DNA of 64,000 nucleotides. Origin: an uncultured virus (IMG/VR IMGVR_UViG_3300025502_001355). Lineage: Duplodnaviria; Heunggongvirae; Uroviricota; Caudoviricetes. Both the position numbers and the translations under genes were made by a program. The notes beneath the pieces were generated by a model. It saw nothing but the letters and a program-made list of their open reading frames with translations. It was not told the DNA's origin and made no database searches. The stretch lies in the IMG/VR virus record IMGVR_UViG_3300025502_001355. One strand, 5' to 3'. Below are positions 2,795 through 45,109 of this stretch, one piece after another. Positions within the stretch are counted from its first letter, which is position 1; the number at the start of each line of letters is the position of its first letter.

Positions 2795-4210
2795 ATGAAA
2801 ACATTTAACGATTATCTAATAGCAGAAGAACACGCCAACGAAACCCCTAGCGTTGGTGATGTTTTTGAAATTGAAATGGCTCGTGACGAGACTTTAATTG
2901 AAACCACTGTAGTAGAAGTTTTAGAAGATGGTATTGTAATCAACGCAGATGACGCTGTTATGAAAATGTTTGAAGACGCTGGATACTTGCAAGAGTACAA
3001 TACTGGCATGCCAGCACCAAGCGGTGGTAGTAAGAGTGCCATGGGCAGTGCTTATAAAAAAGCAAACACCCAGCAGTCTAAGCCAGGCGAGTTGGCAGAA
3101 GGCAAGATGAAAGAATTACTTGGCGATATTAACGAACTCACACACGATGAGTTCAGCGGCAAGTACAACATGTCCAAAGACGAAGCAAGAGAAAAGTTTG
3201 ACATCAAAGATGAAGAAGAACTTGATGAAATGTCAGCCATGCGTCGATTGGCCGGTATGATGCAAGACAAAGAAAACATTAAGAATACACGTATTCCCGG
3301 TCATGACGAACGCAGAATACAAGTTGATCTAATAGACCTTACTGATGAAGAATTTGAAGCCAAGCATAAAATGTCAAAGGCAGAAGCAGGTGAAAGGTTC
3401 AACGAAGCAAGTGATGCTAGTGCAGAAGAGGAAGATGATTTCCATACTGAACTAGATGATCTTGTACATAAAACATTTGGACACAGCTCAGACGAAAAGA
3501 AAAAGAAAAAGAAAAGCAACAAACCATATGACTTGTACCACAAAACATTCTCTGATGCTATGCAACATGCTTATGCATACGCAATGGAAAATCTTGGTAT
3601 TGAGATTGATCCAAATGAGATTGATAACGAAGTTGCAATGGGTCCCCCAAAACCAGCCACTGGTAAAACAAACTCTTACCGCCTATTAGGAAAAGATGGA
3701 AAGAAGGCTATTCAAGTACAGGTTTACAACACAGGTAACTCGTACGAATTGAACATGTACAAAGAACAAATTAACGAAGCAGATGTTGATAAAGGGTACA
3801 TCAATATTGGTGGTGCTAGAGTAAAAGCTGATAAGGCTTCTATACTACAACATTTTAAGAAAACATTTCCTAATGTAACTAAAATTAAAAAAGATCCACA
3901 GCATGGTTGGGTTCCAGTTTTTGATAATGAGCTAGACGAAGCAGAATACCAAGGTCGTGAAGTTACACTTAACAAGCCAACACGTGGTGATGTTAAAAAG
4001 TCTAAGGTATATGTTAAAGATCCAAAGACAGGCAACGTAAAAAAAGTCAACTTTGGACACGGCGGTACAAGTGCTAAACGTGCCGGCCAAAAAACAATGA
4101 GTATTAAAAAGAGTGATCCAGCAAGAAGAAAGAGTTTTAGAGCAAGACACAATTGTGATAATCCGGGACCAAAGACCAAGGCTCGCTATTGGAGTTGTAG
4201 GGCTTGGTAG
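2795..4210 (+). CDS. Modular acidic head-associated protein with a basic C-terminal phage domain
   Basis: N-terminus MKTFNDYLIAE resembles the T4 capsid-targeting sequence; internal duplication LTxxEFxxKxxMSKxEAxExF; C-terminal KKVNFG...RKSFRARHNC...ARYWSCRAW. Confidence 0.6.
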   Translation: MKTFNDYLIAEEHANETPSVGDVFEIEMARDETLIETTVVEVLEDGIVINADDAVMKMFEDAGYLQEYNTGMPAPSGGSKSAMGSAYKKANTQQSKPGELAEGKMKELLGDINELTHDEFSGKYNMSKDEAREKFDIKDEEELDEMSAMRRLAGMMQDKENIKNTRIPGHDERRIQVDLIDLTDEEFEAKHKMSKAEAGERFNEASDASAEEEDDFHTELDDLVHKTFGHSSDEKKKKKKSNKPYDLYHKTFSDAMQHAYAYAMENLGIEIDPNEIDNEVAMGPPKPATGKTNSYRLLGKDGKKAIQVQVYNTGNSYELNMYKEQINEADVDKGYINIGGARVKADKASILQHFKKTFPNVTKIKKDPQHGWVPVFDNELDEAEYQGREVTLNKPTRGDVKKSKVYVKDPKTGNVKKVNFGHGGTSAKRAGQKTMSIKKSDPARRKSFRARHNCDNPGPKTKARYWSCRAW

Positions 4211-4271
4211 TGTAGTACATTTAGTAATATAAAATAATAATAATTACAGTAATTCAAAAGGAGCAATCAAG

Positions 4272-4754
4272 ATGCAACACAATGAGTATGACGTAGTCGT
4301 CATTAAAGTAGTTGATGGCGATACCGTAGACGTAGATATCGATTTAGGATTTGGCGTTTGTCTTAAGGACGAGCGTGTACGTATTATGGGTATTGATACC
4401 CCGGAGTCAAGAACAAGTGACCGAGTAGAGGACTTGTTTGGTGAAGCAGCCAAAGCAAGACTAAAAGAACTTATGAAACACGGTGGTAAACTTATTACCA
4501 CAGAAGACAAAAGTGGCGAGGATATGAAAGGCAAGTTTGGACGTATCCTAGGCGACTTCAAAGTAGAACACAACGGCGAAATGAAACGTGTAACTGAAAT
4601 CATGGAAGCAGAAGGACATTGTGTTCCTTACTTTGGCGGAAGCAAAGAAGATACACAAGCCGCACATGAAGTAAACAGAGTGCGTCTACTAGCAGAAGGC
4701 ATTGTTACTCAAGAAGCGTATGAAAAAGCAGTCAAACAAATGGAAAAGAAATAA
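4272..4754 (+). CDS. Thermonuclease (staphylococcal nuclease-like)
   Basis: VVDGDTVD, RVRIMGIDTPE and GKFGRILG motifs; SD AAGGAG. Confidence 0.85.
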   Translation: MQHNEYDVVVIKVVDGDTVDVDIDLGFGVCLKDERVRIMGIDTPESRTSDRVEDLFGEAAKARLKELMKHGGKLITTEDKSGEDMKGKFGRILGDFKVEHNGEMKRVTEIMEAEGHCVPYFGGSKEDTQAAHEVNRVRLLAEGIVTQEAYEKAVKQMEKK

Positions 4755-38864: not shown

Positions 38865-40033
38865 TATTTGTATTTGACACCTACGAACGTGGGGGTGTCT
38901 ACTTACCAAACTTAGTTACAGACAACACTATTGAATTTAGAAGCGAGCAATGGTGGGACCTTGCTATCTCCCCGCCGTACAGTTACGAATTTAGATTCCT
39001 GCGATATCTTTGGAAACACAATATCAAGTACCGTGTTGAACATGTACGTGATGTAACCGAACAGTGTGTATATCCTGTAAATCTAAATTACTTTGACCCA
39101 AGTATAGATTATATTGCATTGGTAAGTGACCGTGCTAAAGAATTGGCACGACAAGGCTTATGCACTATATGGTTCTATTACAGCGAAGGCGACAACATTG
39201 ATTGGCATATTGATCGGTGTATACGTGAGCAACTAACAAAACATAACATACCGTATCAACAGTTCAAGTTTACTATTGCTAATGCCCTAGTAGAGGGCGA
39301 GTTTTATTCTTATTTTCCAGACGACGAACTCTACTACAAGTACTTGCATGCAGATGGTGGCTATGTGATGCAAGTTAACACAGATATTAGAAGCAAAAAG
39401 TTTACTTGTCTTAACCGTGTGGACAAACCATTTAGAAGATTGTTTGCCGCAACACTAGTCGAACATGGGCTTGTTGATGACGCATACTTTAGTTACACAG
39501 ACCGCAAGTACCAAGTTGAATACGAAACAAGGGACAGTGATACTGGTAATTGGGATACTTGGGACCATACCGTATTAGAAAGATTTACTCCACCATATCG
39601 TTGTGATGATTTACAAGACTACGAACACAACTCACACAAACTAATAGATACACGTTTCTTTCAGGAGGCATATTATAATGTGATTGTTGAAACACACATC
39701 AATAACTTGTTCTTAACTGAGAAAACATTCAAGCCCATACTAAACCTACAACCATTTGTTATTGTTGGAGCATCGGGTAGTTTACAATTACTACATGAGT
39801 TGGGCTATAAGACGTTTGGGGATTATATAGACGAAAGTTATGACAGCATAGAAGATCCGGAACAACGTCTAAAACAATGTTTACATACTGTAGAACAAAT
39901 CAGCCGCATGAGCCACTCGGAACACATGGTTGATCAGCATGACATGCGTAAAATTCTCCTTCACAATCAACAGCATTTCCTATCTGATAAGTCCGCTAAG
40001 TTGTTGAATTTACTTAATAAAATAAACGGTTGA
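38861..40033 (+). CDS. Hypothetical protein, paralog of 35738-36871
   Basis: VETH...FLTEKTFKPI...LGYKTF...DESYD motif. Confidence 0.6.
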   Translation: MIFVFDTYERGGVYLPNLVTDNTIEFRSEQWWDLAISPPYSYEFRFLRYLWKHNIKYRVEHVRDVTEQCVYPVNLNYFDPSIDYIALVSDRAKELARQGLCTIWFYYSEGDNIDWHIDRCIREQLTKHNIPYQQFKFTIANALVEGEFYSYFPDDELYYKYLHADGGYVMQVNTDIRSKKFTCLNRVDKPFRRLFAATLVEHGLVDDAYFSYTDRKYQVEYETRDSDTGNWDTWDHTVLERFTPPYRCDDLQDYEHNSHKLIDTRFFQEAYYNVIVETHINNLFLTEKTFKPILNLQPFVIVGASGSLQLLHELGYKTFGDYIDESYDSIEDPEQRLKQCLHTVEQISRMSHSEHMVDQHDMRKILLHNQQHFLSDKSAKLLNLLNKING

Positions 40034-40058
40034 CGGTTTGTCCAAAATAGCCTATAAT
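40030..40058 (+). promoter_or_regulatory. Early sigma70-type promoter
   Basis: TTGACG-17-TATAAT; spacer contains GTCCAAAAT. Confidence 0.75.
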
Positions 40059-40103
40059 AGCACTTGTAGTACAGTTATTAATAATACTAATAAGGAGCTA
40101 AAA

Positions 40104-40433
40104 ATGGACGATACTACTAACAACAGAAGCGCAGGACAGTTTGCTTGGGCGGCACGTATGAACGCAGTCGGTACTAGCAATATGCACAAGCAAAATTATT
40201 CACAAGCACAACAATTAAAAGCTGAACAGATGCGTCTTGCACTTGAATTAATTTATTATCACAAGCAAGTTCACAAAACATTTCGTAAAACTAAAATAGC
40301 AATTAAAGTAGAAAACGCTAGGGTAGCGGATAAAAAAATGTTAGCTGAACTTGATGCACATTGGAAAGCGGAAGGTATTACTACTCAAAAGACACCGCAA
40401 GGCATCATATACAGCATTAAAAAAGAAAAGTAA
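40104..40433 (+). CDS. Early hypothetical protein
   Basis: SD TAAGGAGC before ATG 40104. Confidence 0.7.
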   Translation: MDDTTNNRSAGQFAWAARMNAVGTSNMHKQNYSQAQQLKAEQMRLALELIYYHKQVHKTFRKTKIAIKVENARVADKKMLAELDAHWKAEGITTQKTPQGIIYSIKKEK

Positions 40434-40474
40434 GCACACGTAACTAGCTGATTGTAAACAACTTATAATTTTGG

Positions 40475-40503
40475 TTGACTTGTTGTCCAAAATCGTCTAT
40501 AAT
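40475..40503 (+). promoter_or_regulatory. Early sigma70-type promoter
   Basis: TTGACT-17-TATAAT; spacer contains GTCCAAAAT. Confidence 0.75.
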
Positions 40504-40538
40504 ACGTAAGTATATTAACTAGTAAGGAGCTAAACAAA

Positions 40539-40772
40539 ATGACTGATAACGCATTCGAACTTATGGTAGAGCAAGACGTTGATACAGTTCTTGATACAGT
40601 AGTTAAAGACGAGTTCTACTGGAGAAACTGGTACAACGGTACAATGTTTATTAATGGTATGACAATGGATGCAATGAAAAGTGTACTGATCCAACTACGT
40701 GCAGTATACGGCAACGTGGAAATGAACAGATGCGGTGACACTGACGAATACGCATTTGACTTTTGTGAATAA
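40539..40772 (+). CDS. Early hypothetical protein
   Basis: SD TAAGGAGC; follows the promoter. Confidence 0.7.
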   Translation: MTDNAFELMVEQDVDTVLDTVVKDEFYWRNWYNGTMFINGMTMDAMKSVLIQLRAVYGNVEMNRCGDTDEYAFDFCE

Positions 40773-40785
40773 TAAGGAGATTAAA

Positions 40786-41079
40786 ATGGAACAACAATTA
40801 GAAATCCTAAAGCAAAAAATGATTCAAGACTACAACAGTCGTTGCGATAATGTAGACATGCAGAAAGAGTTTGCTGACGGTATTGAGATCCGTGAAGGCA
40901 AGAAGTATTACAAAGTTACCAGCCACCGCTGTGTTCACAGTTTTATTGTTAAGCAGGACGGTGTAAAGTTTCGCAAGGGTGACATACTTAAAGCCGCATG
41001 TTATGCCGCACCAGCAACCAACTTTGCACGTGGTAACATATTAGAAGATTTTGAAATTAGATGGACAGGAGCGTTATAA
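40786..41079 (+). CDS. Early hypothetical protein
   Basis: SD TAAGGAG; KKYYKV...VHSFI...GDILKAA...APA...RGNI. Confidence 0.7.
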   Translation: MEQQLEILKQKMIQDYNSRCDNVDMQKEFADGIEIREGKKYYKVTSHRCVHSFIVKQDGVKFRKGDILKAACYAAPATNFARGNILEDFEIRWTGAL

Positions 41080-41246
41080 TGAAAATTAAGTTTGATGAAG
41101 AATCTATGCCAGACGAACTTTATAATTCGCTACTACAACATTTTGTAAATGAAGCAGTTGGTTTAGGTGTAGAAGTTAATAAGTTTACCCAATTTAACGA
41201 TTGGGTAGTTGAGTGTGATGTGGATGTGAGGGAAATGGTACATTAA
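41079..41246 (+). CDS. Small early hypothetical protein
   Basis: TAATG overlap with the previous gene; SD AGGAGC. Confidence 0.6.
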   Translation: MKIKFDEESMPDELYNSLLQHFVNEAVGLGVEVNKFTQFNDWVVECDVDVREMVH

Positions 41247-41251
41247 AAAGG

Positions 41252-41280
41252 TTGACAGAAGGACCAAACGAGTCTATAAT
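41252..41280 (+). promoter_or_regulatory. Early sigma70-type promoter
   Basis: TTGACA-17-TATAAT; spacer contains GACCAAA. Confidence 0.8.
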
Positions 41281-41334
41281 ACACATATAATAAGAAAACA
41301 ACTGTTAATTTTATAATTTTCAAAGGAGCAATAT

Positions 41335-42372
41335 ATGTCTACAGCGTATATAAAAATTAAAAACGGTTCATATCGCAATATGGATGTCAGTGGAAAGACC
41401 TTCCAACTAGTAAAACAGTTCCAACCTGGCACCAACGGTGGATTCGTAACAGTAGAAAATGGTAACCAGTTTCCTGGGTGCCCAGAAAAACTTCGTATTA
41501 AATTAAGCAGTGTGGCTGACTACGAGTTCACAACTGACTCAGACACAGCAGTACAGCAATTGGTTACACAGGCTGAAGCAGATCCAAATGCTAATGTAGG
41601 TGACGCAGAACGTATTGAACAGATTGCTCAGCGTTTTCAAATACTAGAGGACATGACCAAAGCCGCAACACAAAACGAGATTACAGCAATGATCGTTAGC
41701 GGCCCTCCAGGAGTTGGTAAGAGTTACGGTGTGGAGAAAGAGATTGAAAAGGCTACACTGTTTGATCAGATTGCAGGACGCAGGCTACGAGCAGAAGTGG
41801 TTAAAGGTGCCGCAACACCAATTGGCTTATACCAAACACTTTACAAGTATTCGGATAAGAACTGTTTGGTTGTGTTTGATGACTGTGACTCAATCCTACT
41901 GGATGACGTTTCTCTTAACTTGCTCAAGGGTGCGTTGGACTCAGGTAAGAAACGCAAGATAAGTTGGTTAGCAGAATCCAGAGTATTGCGTAGCGAAGGC
42001 ATACCCGACTCGTTCTATTTCAAAGGCAGTGTGATTTTTATCACCAATTTGAAGTTTGACAAGGTACGCTCACAGAAACTACGTGATCACTTGGATGCAT
42101 TGCAGTCACGATGTCACTACTTGGATCTTACACTGGACAGTATGCGTGATAAAATATTGCGTATCAAACAGATTGCTAAGAGTGGTGCATTGTTTGCTGA
42201 GATGGATATTGAACAATGTGGACAAGATGATATTATTGAGTTTATGGATACTAACAAGAGCAGATTACGTGAAATGAGTTTGCGTATGGCGATTAAGATT
42301 GCACAATTATACAAGAGCTTCCCGGGTAACTGGAAAGCAATGACAGAGTCAACTTGTATGAAGAGTGCTTAA
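41335..42372 (+). CDS. AAA+ family ATPase
   Basis: GPPGVGKS, VVFDDCD, IFITN, ALQSR. Confidence 0.85.
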   Translation: MSTAYIKIKNGSYRNMDVSGKTFQLVKQFQPGTNGGFVTVENGNQFPGCPEKLRIKLSSVADYEFTTDSDTAVQQLVTQAEADPNANVGDAERIEQIAQRFQILEDMTKAATQNEITAMIVSGPPGVGKSYGVEKEIEKATLFDQIAGRRLRAEVVKGAATPIGLYQTLYKYSDKNCLVVFDDCDSILLDDVSLNLLKGALDSGKKRKISWLAESRVLRSEGIPDSFYFKGSVIFITNLKFDKVRSQKLRDHLDALQSRCHYLDLTLDSMRDKILRIKQIAKSGALFAEMDIEQCGQDDIIEFMDTNKSRLREMSLRMAIKIAQLYKSFPGNWKAMTESTCMKSA

Positions 42373-42381
42373 CGAGCAGTA

Positions 42382-42459
42382 AACCGACATTTTTGTTAGC
42401 TCCTTTTATGTCGGTTCCCTTGGGCCTATCGGATGTAATAATCCGGTAGGTCTTTTTTT
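42382..42459 (+). ncRNA. Candidate 3'UTR-derived antisense sRNA (anti-RBS stem-loop plus terminator)
   Basis: 9-bp stem AACCGACAT/ATGTCGGTT with a 17-nt loop containing TTAGCTCCTT, the reverse complement of AAGGAGCTAA at 40092 and 40524. Confidence 0.45.
42423..42459 (+). terminator. Intrinsic terminator ending the early island
   Basis: GGCCTATCGGAT-GTAATA-ATCCGGTAGGTC followed by T7. Confidence 0.85.
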
Positions 42460-42495
42460 GACTTCTTCTAATACTAGTGTATACTTATATCTAAC

Positions 42496-43653
42496 ATGCA
42501 AAAATTTACCTACGTTGAAGATTACTTAGAAATTATAAATGGTGACAGGGATCCGGTAACCAACAAGTACTACGGTATGTTCGGGAAGATAGAGCCCATA
42601 ATCAGTTTGGCTAGGTATGATGTTAGAGTAATTAACAGCATGGCCACAAGTGTCCGCGGGGGACAAGGGTTAACAGACAAGCAGGCCGAACTGGCTTGCA
42701 AACTGATTTTAAAATACAAACGACAATTGGAGGCAAAAAGAGTAGACGTTGCTCCTGTTGAAAATCCCCAGTACAGAAAGCCTTTGCGTACAATTGATCG
42801 CAGACGAATGATGTGGCTAGAGCAAGACCAAATAGTACTACAGTTTTCTTTTGAACCTAAGATTGTTGACATGGTTAGAGATGCTACTAAGATCAGTTGC
42901 GGTAGTTGGCGTTTTCATAATGAAGAAACCAAACAGTGGCGCATAGCACTAACAGAGCCCAACTTAGCCGCTACAATGTTTATTGCGAGGCATCATGATT
43001 TTGAAATTGACTCACAACTGTTTGATATTGAGAAAAAGATAACGCAGACTAAACCACAACACGTACAGTTGGATGTTGTGGACACTCAGTTGGTTATTCG
43101 TAATGCCCCTGCATCGCTGTTAGAATTTGTGACCAAGAAAGCAGGAGACATAACTATCAACAACTTAATAAAAGTTATCGATCTGGCTGGTGTGTGCTAT
43201 TTCTTAGTGAGTCAGCAAGTTGAAGACTTGTTCTTGAAAAAGTTTGAAAGCACACGCTTGTTTAACCTACTAAAAGGTAATCATGTAAACTACAACCCAG
43301 ATGCCAACAAAGAAGTGCTGGATGCACTATTTGTCTATGCACAGGTTACAGAAAGATTACCAGTTTATGTATACGAACCAGACCTTAGTAACAGACTACG
43401 CGATAAGTTTGTGTTAGGTTATTTTAACGAAGATGAGGTATTATTTGCACCACGTAACAATGAACCTATCGACACAACAGACAAAAAGGTTGTGTACTTT
43501 ACCAAATATCGTTCACACTGGCCACAGGATATTCCTTTGTTAGTAACCAGTGCTGGCATGATGCATGGTGCAGAAAAAACTTTATTGTTGCAACGTGCAG
43601 AAAAGGTTGTGTTCTTTGCTACAGAAGTGTACAATACATACAAAGGAAAATAG
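42496..43653 (+). CDS. Hypothetical protein
   Basis: 385-aa ORF preceded by TTGACT-16-TATACT. Confidence 0.65.
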   Translation: MQKFTYVEDYLEIINGDRDPVTNKYYGMFGKIEPIISLARYDVRVINSMATSVRGGQGLTDKQAELACKLILKYKRQLEAKRVDVAPVENPQYRKPLRTIDRRRMMWLEQDQIVLQFSFEPKIVDMVRDATKISCGSWRFHNEETKQWRIALTEPNLAATMFIARHHDFEIDSQLFDIEKKITQTKPQHVQLDVVDTQLVIRNAPASLLEFVTKKAGDITINNLIKVIDLAGVCYFLVSQQVEDLFLKKFESTRLFNLLKGNHVNYNPDANKEVLDALFVYAQVTERLPVYVYEPDLSNRLRDKFVLGYFNEDEVLFAPRNNEPIDTTDKKVVYFTKYRSHWPQDIPLLVTSAGMMHGAEKTLLLQRAEKVVFFATEVYNTYKGK

Positions 43654-43654
43654 A

Positions 43655-45109
43655 TTGAAAGCCAAGTTAATAATTAAAGATGAAGTTAATGTAAAGATCG
43701 AAGGACTAGAACTTGGTACCAGGACGGCATTGGTGCGCAAGTATAAGTTTGATGTTCCTGGCGCACGTTATCAACCAGCAGTCAGACTAGGACGCTGGGA
43801 TGGTAAAGTGCCATTCTTTAATCTTGGCGGTAGCACCTACATTAATATATTACCAGAGATACTTCCGTATCTAGATGAACAAGGTTACGATCTTGAAGTA
43901 GAAGACCTCAGAGACTACAGAACTAACTTTGACTTTACAGAAGTAAATGAACAAAGTTACTCACACAAAGTATGGCCCAAGAATCATCCCAAGGTTGGTG
44001 AACCAATAGAACTCAGGGACTACCAAGTTGAATTGATTAACGGCTTCTTAAAGAACCCCCAGTGCGTACAAGAAGTAGCAACAGGCGCAGGTAAAACTAT
44101 TATGACTGCGGCACTTGCTGACAAGGTTGGTGAGTACGGCCGCACTATTATTATCGTGCCCAACAAGAGCTTGGTTACACAGACAGAAGAAGACTTTGTT
44201 AACTTGGACCTGGACGTTGGTGTTTACTATGGCGATAGAAAAGAGTTTGGTCGGCTGCACACAATATGTACTTGGCAAAGCCTCAACAACATGCTTAAAC
44301 AAACTAGGAACGCAGAAGCAGATATTACTATAGGCGAGTTCTTAGAAGGTGTTGTTGGTGTTATTGTTGATGAAGTACACGGTGCTAAAGCAGACGCACT
44401 TAAAACACTGCTGAGTGGACCTATGGGATGTATCCCAATCCGTTGGGGACTAACCGGCACAATACCCAAAGAGCAGTTTGAATTCATGAGTATATTCTGC
44501 AACTTGGGACCTGTTATTGGACAACTAAGCGCACGTGAACTACAGGAAGCAGGACACCTGGCTATGTGCCATGTTAATGTTGTACAGTTAGTCGACCATA
44601 CTGAATACACCAACTACCAAAGTGAGTTAAAGTATCTGCTGGAGAACAGCGATCGTTTAGACTACATTTCAGAAATGATAAGTAAAATTACAGACACAGG
44701 TAATACACTTATTCTAGTAGACAGAATAAACTCAGGCAAAGAACTACACTCACGCTTGCCCGGTAGTGTATTTGTGTCAGGTGCAACCAAAGCATTGGAG
44801 CGAAAAGAACATTATGACGAAGTGGCAGAGGCAGAAGGTAAGATCATCATCGCCACCTATGGCGTTGCTAGTGTTGGCATTAACATTCCCCGTATTTTTA
44901 ATCTGGTTCTCATTGAGCCTGGTAAAAGTTTTGTACGGGTTATCCAGTCAATTGGTAGGGGTATTCGTAAAGCCCAAGACAAAGACTTCGTACAGATCTG
45001 GGACATAACCAGTACCTGCAAGTTCGCAAAAAGACACCTGACTAAACGTAAAGCATTTTATCGAGATGCAAACTATCCGTTTGCCGTGGAGAAAACAGAA
45101 TGGCAATAA
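43655..45109 (+). CDS. uvsW: SF2 helicase UvsW-like (TTG start inferred)
   Basis: WDGK, LRDYQ, ATGAGKT, DEVH, GLTGT, QSIGRGIR. Confidence 0.9.
   Translation: MKAKLIIKDEVNVKIEGLELGTRTALVRKYKFDVPGARYQPAVRLGRWDGKVPFFNLGGSTYINILPEILPYLDEQGYDLEVEDLRDYRTNFDFTEVNEQSYSHKVWPKNHPKVGEPIELRDYQVELINGFLKNPQCVQEVATGAGKTIMTAALADKVGEYGRTIIIVPNKSLVTQTEEDFVNLDLDVGVYYGDRKEFGRLHTICTWQSLNNMLKQTRNAEADITIGEFLEGVVGVIVDEVHGAKADALKTLLSGPMGCIPIRWGLTGTIPKEQFEFMSIFCNLGPVIGQLSARELQEAGHLAMCHVNVVQLVDHTEYTNYQSELKYLLENSDRLDYISEMISKITDTGNTLILVDRINSGKELHSRLPGSVFVSGATKALERKEHYDEVAEAEGKIIIATYGVASVGINIPRIFNLVLIEPGKSFVRVIQSIGRGIRKAQDKDFVQIWDITSTCKFAKRHLTKRKAFYRDANYPFAVEKTEWQ

Follow-up and report, generated by a model that had tools for sequence, protein, structure and literature searches.

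Few long-range interactions of bacterial mRNAs with themselves have been documented. In the icaR mRNA of Staphylococcus aureus, an anti-Shine-Dalgarno (anti-SD) motif in the untranslated region at the 3' end (3'UTR) pairs with the Shine-Dalgarno (SD) sequence of the same mRNA, blocks the initiation complex and yields a substrate for RNase III; the available part of the paper calls this case 'a singular example' (Ruiz de los Mozos et al. 2013, PMC3868564). In Bacillus subtilis, anti-SD-like 8-mers located hundreds of nucleotides downstream pair with the ribosome-binding site (RBS), which favors decay and prevents initiation, and genes are depleted of them; the accessible part of this preprint cites three papers on long-range self-interactions of bacterial mRNAs, the icaR paper among them (Gill et al. 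2025, PMC12697547). The present analysis concerns a hairpin in a 64,000-nucleotide stretch of DNA from an uncultured virus of the Caudoviricetes (IMG/VR record IMGVR_UViG_3300025502_001355), which in its full length is called the window. The hairpin stands directly 3' of the gene of an AAA-type ATPase, and its loop carries an anti-SD that changes, from lineage to lineage, together with the SD of that gene. The element probably works like icaR, yet as an unrelated, loop-displayed and phage-borne form.

The likeness to icaR lies in a pyrimidine-rich anti-SD in the 3'UTR that is complementary to the SD of the same mRNA, as the available part of that paper describes it (PMC3868564). The two sequences are, however, unrelated. 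The phage anti-SD is presented in a conserved hairpin loop a few bases before the terminator, in the short 3'UTR of an early operon, and it may have several SD partners on nested co-terminal transcripts; the evidence for it is comparative co-variation, not experiment. From B. subtilis it is known, according to the accessible part of the preprint, that long-distance pairing of anti-SD and RBS works in vivo (PMC12697547). The anti-SDs used there were synthetic inserts, whereas the phage anti-SD is positively conserved, structured and co-evolving with the SD.

A further likeness exists to small RNAs (sRNAs) that are derived from 3'UTRs or carry their seed in a loop, as an SD-complementary single-stranded seed stands beside a terminator hairpin. 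The S. aureus RNAs RNAIII and RsaE mask SDs with C-rich loops, and DicF is a prophage sRNA of the SD-masking kind. The phage element differs in that the conserved partner of its loop is the first gene of its own operon and not an unlinked target, and in that a discrete RNA is only predicted. The c4 antisense RNA of phages P1 and P7, which Citron and Schuster are said to have described in 1992, reportedly belongs to the same operon as its target, has loops complementary to the target RBS, and differs together with the target between related phages. It is said to lie upstream of the target as a processed 77-base RNA and to control the immunity of a temperate phage; the hairpin of the window, in contrast, closes an early operon on the 3' side, in large phages that are apparently lytic, and has no sequence likeness to c4. 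Candidate phage ncRNAs (non-coding RNAs) derived from UTRs have been described (PMC10914365, in the part available), and a full-text literature search found no published description of the element treated here.

The following features, all on the plus strand, make up the ATPase unit of the window:
41252-41280, plus strand: consensus sigma-70 promoter of the ATPase gene, TTGACA-17-TATAAT (12/12), with a predicted 5'UTR of about 48 nt
41322-41329, plus strand: SD region AAAGGAGC of the ATPase gene, an 8-nt complement of loop positions 42399-42406 (GCTCCTTT) and the family-wide partner of the loop (predicted duplex -13.0 kcal/mol)
41335-42372, plus strand: gene of the AAA-type ATPase, 345 amino acids (aa), phrog_1250, with the stop codon at 42370-42372
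42382-42390, plus strand: 5' arm of the hairpin, AACCGACAT
42391-42407, plus strand: 17-nt loop, TTTTGTTAGCTCCTTTT, carrying the anti-SD TTAGCTCCTTTT
42408-42416, plus strand: 3' arm of the hairpin, ATGTCGGTT
42422-42460, plus strand: intrinsic terminator from RNA folding and terminator scan, a 13-pair stem-loop (42422-42453) with a T run

The hairpin had been noticed in an earlier reading of the letters (the original prediction), which placed a 9-bp stem with a 17-nt loop and a terminator behind the ATPase stop codon; a check of the sequence found the stem at 42382-42416 to be perfect and every coordinate right. The terminator is a second hairpin, distinct from the one with the anti-SD; 6 of its 13 pairs are G-C, and TTTTTTT follows. 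RNA folding of 42370-42470 gave just these two hairpins (-32.2 kcal/mol, z = -4.46), an energy equaled by none of 200 shuffles. A covariance model (R1) had a single match in the window, 42382-42416, with 56.7 bits. The ATPase scored strongly with phrog_1250 and only weakly, below the cut-offs, with the AAA models of Pfam.

Related loci were taken from viral and metagenome collections (80 + 80 loci, the best 80 of at least 600 and the best 80 of at least 595 candidate stretches), with ATPases of 60-92% identity. One IMG/VR contig (G001) was identical to the window over the stretch tested. Megablast with 41300-43700 found no DNA match among cultured phages, and the cultured relatives of the ATPase were distant, all below 60% identity and about 40% at best (PA5oct, VAP7 and LPCS28); the hairpin element was absent from these three. 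An element was counted if a hairpin downstream of the ATPase had at least 6 bp in the stem, T[AGT]GCTCC in the loop and a T run within 80 nt. Of 81 loci (the window and 80 relatives), 64 had exactly one such element 3' of the ATPase, with 41 distinct inner stems among them, and no further hairpin of this description occurred on that strand in the 64 loci. As a control, 174 other occurrences of the motif in 509 kb were inspected; a stem and T run accompanied just 3 of them, each of which was an ATPase RBS on the opposite strand.

The window's own clade comprised 14 distinct sequences (alignment A2, from which L215, with an identical hairpin, was left out). Six of the nine stem pairs were changed on both sides, 90.5% of the cells were paired compared with 23-49% when the partners were slid, and the covariation score was reached by 0 of 500 shuffles. 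Within the 17-nt loop, 16 positions were invariant. Judged from these alignments, the hairpin is a selected RNA structure with a selected loop, because the stem covaries, the loop is nearly invariant and the motif is almost never found with stem and T run elsewhere. The claim of a conserved RNA structure with an anti-SD loop was thereby borne out. A covariance model built from the clade was narrow, with full-length matches only in the window, L215 and L217, a partial match in L223 and loop-only matches in a few others.

The loop can also be read on the minus strand, where the window has AAAAGGAGCTAACAAAAATG, a textbook RBS with ATG. It might on this account be a gene start with a 13-codon open reading frame (ORF), the remnant of one, or a pure chance match. 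This type of RBS is common in unrelated phage contigs: among 80 loci fetched from viral contigs with a 15-nt loop pattern, 58 hits lay outside hairpins, many of them ordinary RBSs of unrelated phages on the other strand, while 13 had a stem and T run and 11 of these 13 were the hairpin element. The ATG, however, derives from the stem; it is absent in relatives with other stems and occurs only in the window among the 14 sequences of A2. The ORF has only 13 codons, and a chance match is excluded by the conservation and by the co-variation given below. Both readings were rejected, and we regard their probability as next to negligible.

Conservation also tied the element to the ATPase unit. Of the 77 relatives with enough upstream sequence, 73 had a promoter matching at least 10 of 12 positions in the 120 nt ahead of the ATPase start; it lay 27-54 nt before the start, with predicted 5'UTRs of about 21-48 nt. 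When one to three genes were inserted after the ATPase (L022, L030, L073 and L080), the hairpin still adjoined the terminator and the match was kept. The gene 3' of the terminator was unrelated to that of the window in about half of the tree, so the element belongs to the ATPase unit and not to the downstream gene.

Loop and ATPase SD changed together. The paired variants were TTGGCTCC/GGAGCCAA, CTAGCTCC/GGAGCTAG, TTAGCTCC/GGAGCTAA and TTGCTCC/GGAGCAA. At greater length, loop GGTTGGCTCCT pairs with RBS AGGAGCCAACC, TCTAGCTCCTA with TAGGAGCTAGA, GTTAGCTCCT with AGGAGCTAAC, TTTAGCTCC with GGAGCTAAA, and ATTGCTCC with GGAGCAA(A); complements of 9-11 nt that differ in sequence were AGGAGCCAACC, TAGGAGCTAGA, AGGAGCTAAC, GGAGCTAAA and AAGGAGCCA. 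In an unbiased test, the longest reverse complement of the 20 nt before the ATPase start was sought up to 3 kb downstream, and in most loci it fell in the loop. The triplet 5' of GCTCC and that 3' of GGAGC were TTG/CAA in 21, CTA/TAG in 9 and TTA/TAA in 6 of the 63 loci with an element and a GAGC-type RBS, and mismatching combinations were found mostly within the window's clade. In 103 loci the positions beside the core were complementary in 83, 76, 72 and 54.

For 53 unique pairs (7-11 nt) the longest complement averaged 8.66 nt, compared with 7.24 ± 0.19 nt when partners were permuted without regard to relatedness, and 0 of 10,000 permutations reached 8.66. Contrasts controlled with the ATPase tree went in the same direction in 3 of 3 cases for the position next to GCUCC; for the third position (n = 6) about 4.3 were in the same direction, 0.4 opposite and 1.3 without change. 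With 158 ATPases the corresponding counts (same/opposite/none) were 3/0/0 and 3.6/0.6/1.8, and the two analyses agreed in direction. Compensatory changes of the kind that identify icaR-type pairing are thus present as natural co-variation across lineages, with few tree-controlled counts (3/3 and about 4/6). On these comparisons the co-variation of the loop with the ATPase SD is real. The original prediction had proposed stem covariation and loop/RBS co-evolution in relatives as its check, and this check came out positive.

A conserved loop on a covarying stem is also typical of a hairpin that is recognized by a protein, and its location ahead of the terminator suits a stabilizer. The element could on this account serve protein binding, processing or 3'-end stability (a site for RNase III or an RNA chaperone, or a block to exonucleases), with an incidental likeness to an anti-SD; the 5' half of the loop is indeed conserved in the window's clade without matching the ATPase SD. 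Such a function leaves unexplained why, in several lineages, a change in the loop has its counterpart in the SD region 1-3.5 kb upstream, and we consider it very unlikely. Transition mismatches in register were mostly G-U and not A-C (71 vs 37 overall, 36 vs 4 at positions 2-4), an excess that fits RNA pairing and is confounded by the U/G-rich composition of the loop.

Inverted repeats of 9-11 bp around a segment of 1.1-3.5 kb would co-vary as well if they were kept identical by recombination, as in an invertible switch or another recombination site, and one arm does lie after the promoter and ahead of the start codon, an arrangement that some invertible promoters or genes share. In none of 77 loci, however, was the ATPase inverted with respect to its promoter, one arm was in every case exposed in a hairpin loop, on a covarying stem immediately ahead of an intrinsic terminator, and some pairs (e.g. 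L013, L018 and L079) were complementary only with G-U wobble. Scans with Pfam and PHROG profiles detected no adjoining recombinase gene in the window. Inversion at the DNA level was therefore rejected as highly improbable.

The ATPase SD is not the only predicted partner in the window. Further features of the early cluster, all on the plus strand, are:
40030-40058, plus strand: sigma-70-type promoter TTGACG-17-TATAAT (11/12) ahead of a 109-aa gene, the outermost start of nested early transcripts
40092-40101, plus strand: SD region AAGGAGCTAA of the 109-aa gene (ATG at 40104), an exact 10-nt complement of loop positions 42396-42405 (predicted duplex -14.7 kcal/mol)
40475-40503, plus strand: sigma-70-type promoter (11/12) ahead of a 77-aa gene
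40524-40541, plus strand: SD-to-ATG region AAGGAGCTAAACAAAATG of the 77-aa gene, a 16/18 complement of 42388-42405 and the top predicted loop target in the window

The reverse complement of 42388-42405 is AAGGAGCTAACAAAAATG, which agrees with 40524-40541 in 16 of 18 nt; AAGGAGCTAA occurs exactly at both 40092 and 40524, and AAAAGGAGC at the RBS of an SNase gene near 4256. The RBS matches that had been quoted at 40524-40541, 40092, 41322 and near 4256 were accordingly all present. Four near-consensus sigma-70 promoters (40030, 40475, 41051 and 41252) lie 5' of the hairpin. A terminator scan found no terminator-like site on the plus strand from 40030 to 42422; the five genes in 40104-42372 are therefore probably read as nested transcripts with a common 3' end. 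As the 77-aa and 109-aa genes lack a separate terminator, they probably share this 3' end, and pairing with their SDs could be in cis too. The layout of anti-SD and SD on one transcript is thus predicted in the window and in the relatives.

These upstream genes appear to be the stronger partners in the subclade of the window. Its two closest relatives, L215 (92%) and L217 (86%), have an identical loop. As far as the homologues are present on these contigs, AAGGAGCTA (9-10 nt) was kept on the 77-aa homologues of both and on the 109-aa homologue of L217, with diverged spacers. The predicted duplexes in the window, L215 and L217 amounted to -16.2 to -17.7 kcal/mol for the 77-aa gene, -14.2 to -14.7 for the 109-aa gene and -12.1 to -13.0 for the ATPase gene. 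The reverse complement of the window's loop matches the ATPase RBS of a distant relative (L049) perfectly over 14 nt, so the loop resembles a partner to an earlier RBS of the AAGGAGCTAACAAAATG type; in the window this type of RBS sits on the 77-aa gene (16/18 nt) and on the 109-aa gene (10 nt). A fourth member of the subclade, L002, has the same loop and ATPase SD on a contig that begins about 110 nt before the ATPase. In L215 and L217 an additional gene, absent from the window, overlaps the ATPase stop codon (TAATATG) and separates the ATPase from the hairpin, which lies about 575 nt further down.

We consider it probable, from the comparative data, that the early transcripts, which end at a common site, pair with themselves through the anti-SD loop of their 3'UTR and their SDs, and so limit their own translation as in icaR. 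The hairpin is a conserved RNA element in a clade of uncultured large phages, located in the 3'UTR a few bases before the terminator of an early ATPase unit, and its loop displays an anti-SD of the form ..YURGCUCC... After transcription of the 3' end, the loop would base-pair with the SD region that the same mRNA carries near its 5' end. In the phage of the window this duplex would comprise 8 bp at the ATPase SD. The longer transcripts that start at 40030 and 40475 and share the 3' end would allow 10 bp with the SD of the 109-aa gene and 10 + 5 bp with that of the 77-aa gene. The duplex would hide the SD from the 30S subunit and limit further initiation, and it might also create a site for a double-strand RNase. 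The outcome would be a built-in brake on early proteins, like the 5'-3' UTR interaction of icaR, and the same loop could also act between molecules. While the anatomy of the unit, its conservation, the covariation of the stem and the co-variation of loop and SD are established from the sequences, we infer that loop and SD pair in vivo, that pairing leads to repression and not to stabilization, and that it acts mainly within one molecule.

The bases before CUCC in the loop are UUAG in the window, and Y-U-N-G was found in 53 of 63 loci, the other 10 having A at the Y position. Antisense U-turns of the type YUNR speed RNA-RNA pairing, as stated in the available part of the source (PMC6562991), and the Y-U-N-R of the loops fits such a U-turn. 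The element would be a natural and widespread example of a long-range mRNA self-interaction, found on more than 100 contigs and supported by co-evolution. An anti-SD loop before a terminator would be a compact and portable design to limit translation per transcript. The phage setting is of note because translational control of early genes is known there mostly via proteins.

Several points weigh against this reading. The permutation test takes no account of relatedness, and the tree-controlled tests are underpowered, with 3 and 6 contrasts and median p values in the sign test of 0.25 and 0.125-0.375. In 17 of 81 loci the element was missing under the criteria used: L029 has a weaker T run, in L072 the loop is deleted, several have a short downstream stretch, and others are truly without the element. 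In the window's clade the ATPase SD matches the loop over 7-9 nt only (AAAGGAGC in the window), and the base after GGAGC varies (A, T, C or G) while the loop is invariant; the 5' half of the loop must accordingly be conserved for a reason that pairing with the ATPase SD leaves unexplained. Pairing of loop and SD would form a pseudoknot with the stem, which is beyond ordinary folding. Finally, the RBS matches inside the window were not above chance. With a 10-mer and up to one mismatch, 4 sites were found in the window compared with 4.25 ± 2.22 expected from shuffles. The window alone does not prove the pattern for this reason, whereas the comparative data do.

Other searches in the window gave a similar picture. 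Of 87 crude gene calls, 5 (among them the 109-aa and 77-aa genes) had a 10-nt complement between the RBS and the sequence up to 4 kb downstream. General complementarity between RBSs and 3' ends was absent from the window, and match lengths downstream resembled the upstream control, except for these two early genes. Outside its own site, and out of about 128,000 positions, the loop had its most stable predicted duplex with the RBS at 40517-40540 (-17.7 kcal/mol), only narrowly ahead of sites with -17.3 and -16.7 kcal/mol. Folding of the predicted 5'UTRs gave no consistent geometry with the SD in a loop (kissing).

Natural loss was seen in two pairs of sister loci. L072 retains both stem halves of the hairpin of its sister L066 and lacks the loop. 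L043 has CGCTCCG ahead of its terminator, matching its own RBS CGGAGCG without a hairpin, and nothing comparable was seen in its sister L054.

The original prediction went further and took the hairpin with its terminator for an RNA of about 80 nt which would accumulate as a stable 3'UTR-derived RNA and silence AGGAGC-class mRNAs, with a proposed role as an early-gene timer or feedback loop. On this model the sRNA would be cut from the mRNA or outlast it, act in trans on GGAGC-class early mRNAs (ATPase, 77-aa, 109-aa and SNase genes) and, with its accumulation, bring early translation to a stop. Action of this kind is a tentative possibility. The architecture fits, in that the conserved seed is single-stranded and a short spacer separates it from a terminator that ends in a U tail, as is usual for this class of sRNA. 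In the window, L215 and L217 the 77-aa and 109-aa genes rank first among predicted targets, ahead of the ATPase gene, and in the clade the 17-nt loop is kept as a whole, over more positions than the ATPase SD requires. The Y-U-N-R motif would favor fast pairing in trans as well. The candidate targets in the window lie, however, in the same promoter cluster, the transcripts of the upstream genes probably end at the same terminator, and the match needs no action in trans.

The distribution of SD types was also considered. Of 121 other GGAG-type gene starts before the hairpin, 62 have GGAGC, the most frequent SD type in these early regions; only 7 GGAG-type RBSs lie downstream of the hairpin, too few for a comparison. 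In the window, the promoter at 40030 and the terminator enclose 5 genes, 4 of which have a GGAGC-type SD, compared with 1 of the 82 remaining crude gene calls (about 1e-5 in a hand-computed, post hoc Fisher test). A GGAG-type SD was seen in only about 25 of the 87 crude gene calls of the window, many calls being without a recognizable SD, and strong AAGGAGC SDs were confined to the promoter-rich early cluster and an SNase-like gene at 4272.

Extended complements elsewhere argued against a wider set of targets. In five contigs of 50-300 kb the 9-mer GGAGCCAAC occurred 19 times, compared with 2 times for the reversed control; five occurrences were ATPase RBSs, five were hairpins and nine were other sites. 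Only one of these nine was a promoter-plus-RBS site, which carries the full 9-mer in L211 at a distance of 38 kb. Ten contigs of the window's clade contained two further extended-complement sites, both inside coding sequence, and in these contigs no extended complement was found at further RBSs of other clade members. The further sites were thus not at RBSs in 8 of 9 and 2 of 2 cases. The partner that co-varies throughout the family is the ATPase's own SD; co-variation with the RBSs of the 77-aa and 109-aa genes cannot be assessed, since the loop is invariant in the subclade. The prediction that the loop is directed at early-gene RBSs was upheld as far as loop and RBS co-evolve, and has to be amended as regards the conserved partner, which is not an upstream regulon but the SD of the unit's own first gene. 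The upstream genes kept a complement of 9-10 nt in the window, L215 and L217; elsewhere 1 of 9 and 0 of 2 extra sites were RBSs.

Sequence data from RNA libraries consisted of assembled contigs of relatives, and a discrete species is only predicted. Sixteen runs were listed, 12 of them as RNA (one flagged as probably DNA), with 5-12% of the sampled words. The four RNA-library sets that were examined contained relatives at 88-99% identity, as assembled contigs that are uninformative on ends, strand and level. One contig of 254 nt bridges the terminator into the next gene, and one of 272 nt ends in the hairpin-terminator region.

Both kinds of action might be combined in a module with two jobs, a limit in cis on each transcript followed, once the mRNA has decayed, by a surviving stable small RNA that silences GGAGC-class early messages in trans. 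This would be an RNA-only switch from early to middle expression; we regard it as unlikely. Since pairing would form only after the 3' end is made, each transcript would give a limited burst of translation, and the leaderless downstream gene and the largely SD-less late genes would be spared. In phage T4 the RegB nuclease does a comparable early-to-middle job. If the module does exist, large lytic phages would possess a translational switch made of RNA only.

A scan of 39500-43500 with Rfam at E of up to 1 gave only sub-threshold matches, SdsR_RyeB with 22.9 bits (gathering score 38) and PhrS with 16.1 bits (gathering score 37). The SdsR_RyeB match (RF00111; E = 0.69) is a weak full-length alignment of 42373-42459 that reflects the shape of a hairpin plus terminator, and membership in this family was rejected.

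The boundary of the unit, outside the predicted pairing, is formed by one further feature:
42458-42498, plus strand: promoter TTGACT-16-TATACT (42458-42485) and ATG (42496) of the next gene

The -35 region of this promoter overlaps the T run of the terminator, and the ATG lies 10 nt past the -10 region without an SD, pointing to a leaderless or nearly leaderless mRNA. The 385-aa gene that starts there has no match in Pfam or PHROG and looks leaderless. In homologues from the window and relatives (L002-L074) the -10 region ended 5-7 nt before the ATG in 27 of 34 cases, compared with 10 nt in the window, and an SD-like motif was present upstream in 0 of 34.

Other hairpins were seen near ATPase genes or in unrelated phages. 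In the Pseudomonas phage PA5oct (L082) a hairpin AAGTAGCA/TGCTACTT lies 20 nt after the stop codon of the ATPase homologue, and its 3' arm complements 8 nt of the RBS region of that homologue (GGAGTAGCAT), which chance could give; an ncRNA based on RNA-seq is annotated 2 kb upstream. Just after the ATPase stop codon, L003, L022, L034, L039 and L074 share another conserved hairpin, whose loop is CAATGTCAATAAGT and whose stems vary; in L014 it occurs with an insertion. L022 and L034 also have the anti-SD hairpin further downstream; the others had none in the available sequence. In an unrelated group of G+C-rich phages (L096, L125 and L164, at about position 4000 each) an intergenic hairpin of 11-15 bp with a nearly identical loop GGTTTGTTAGCTCCTTTC follows a stop codon, and two of the three have the RBS GAAAGGAG(C) 2.8 kb upstream. 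The design may have arisen here independently, or the likeness may be due to chance.

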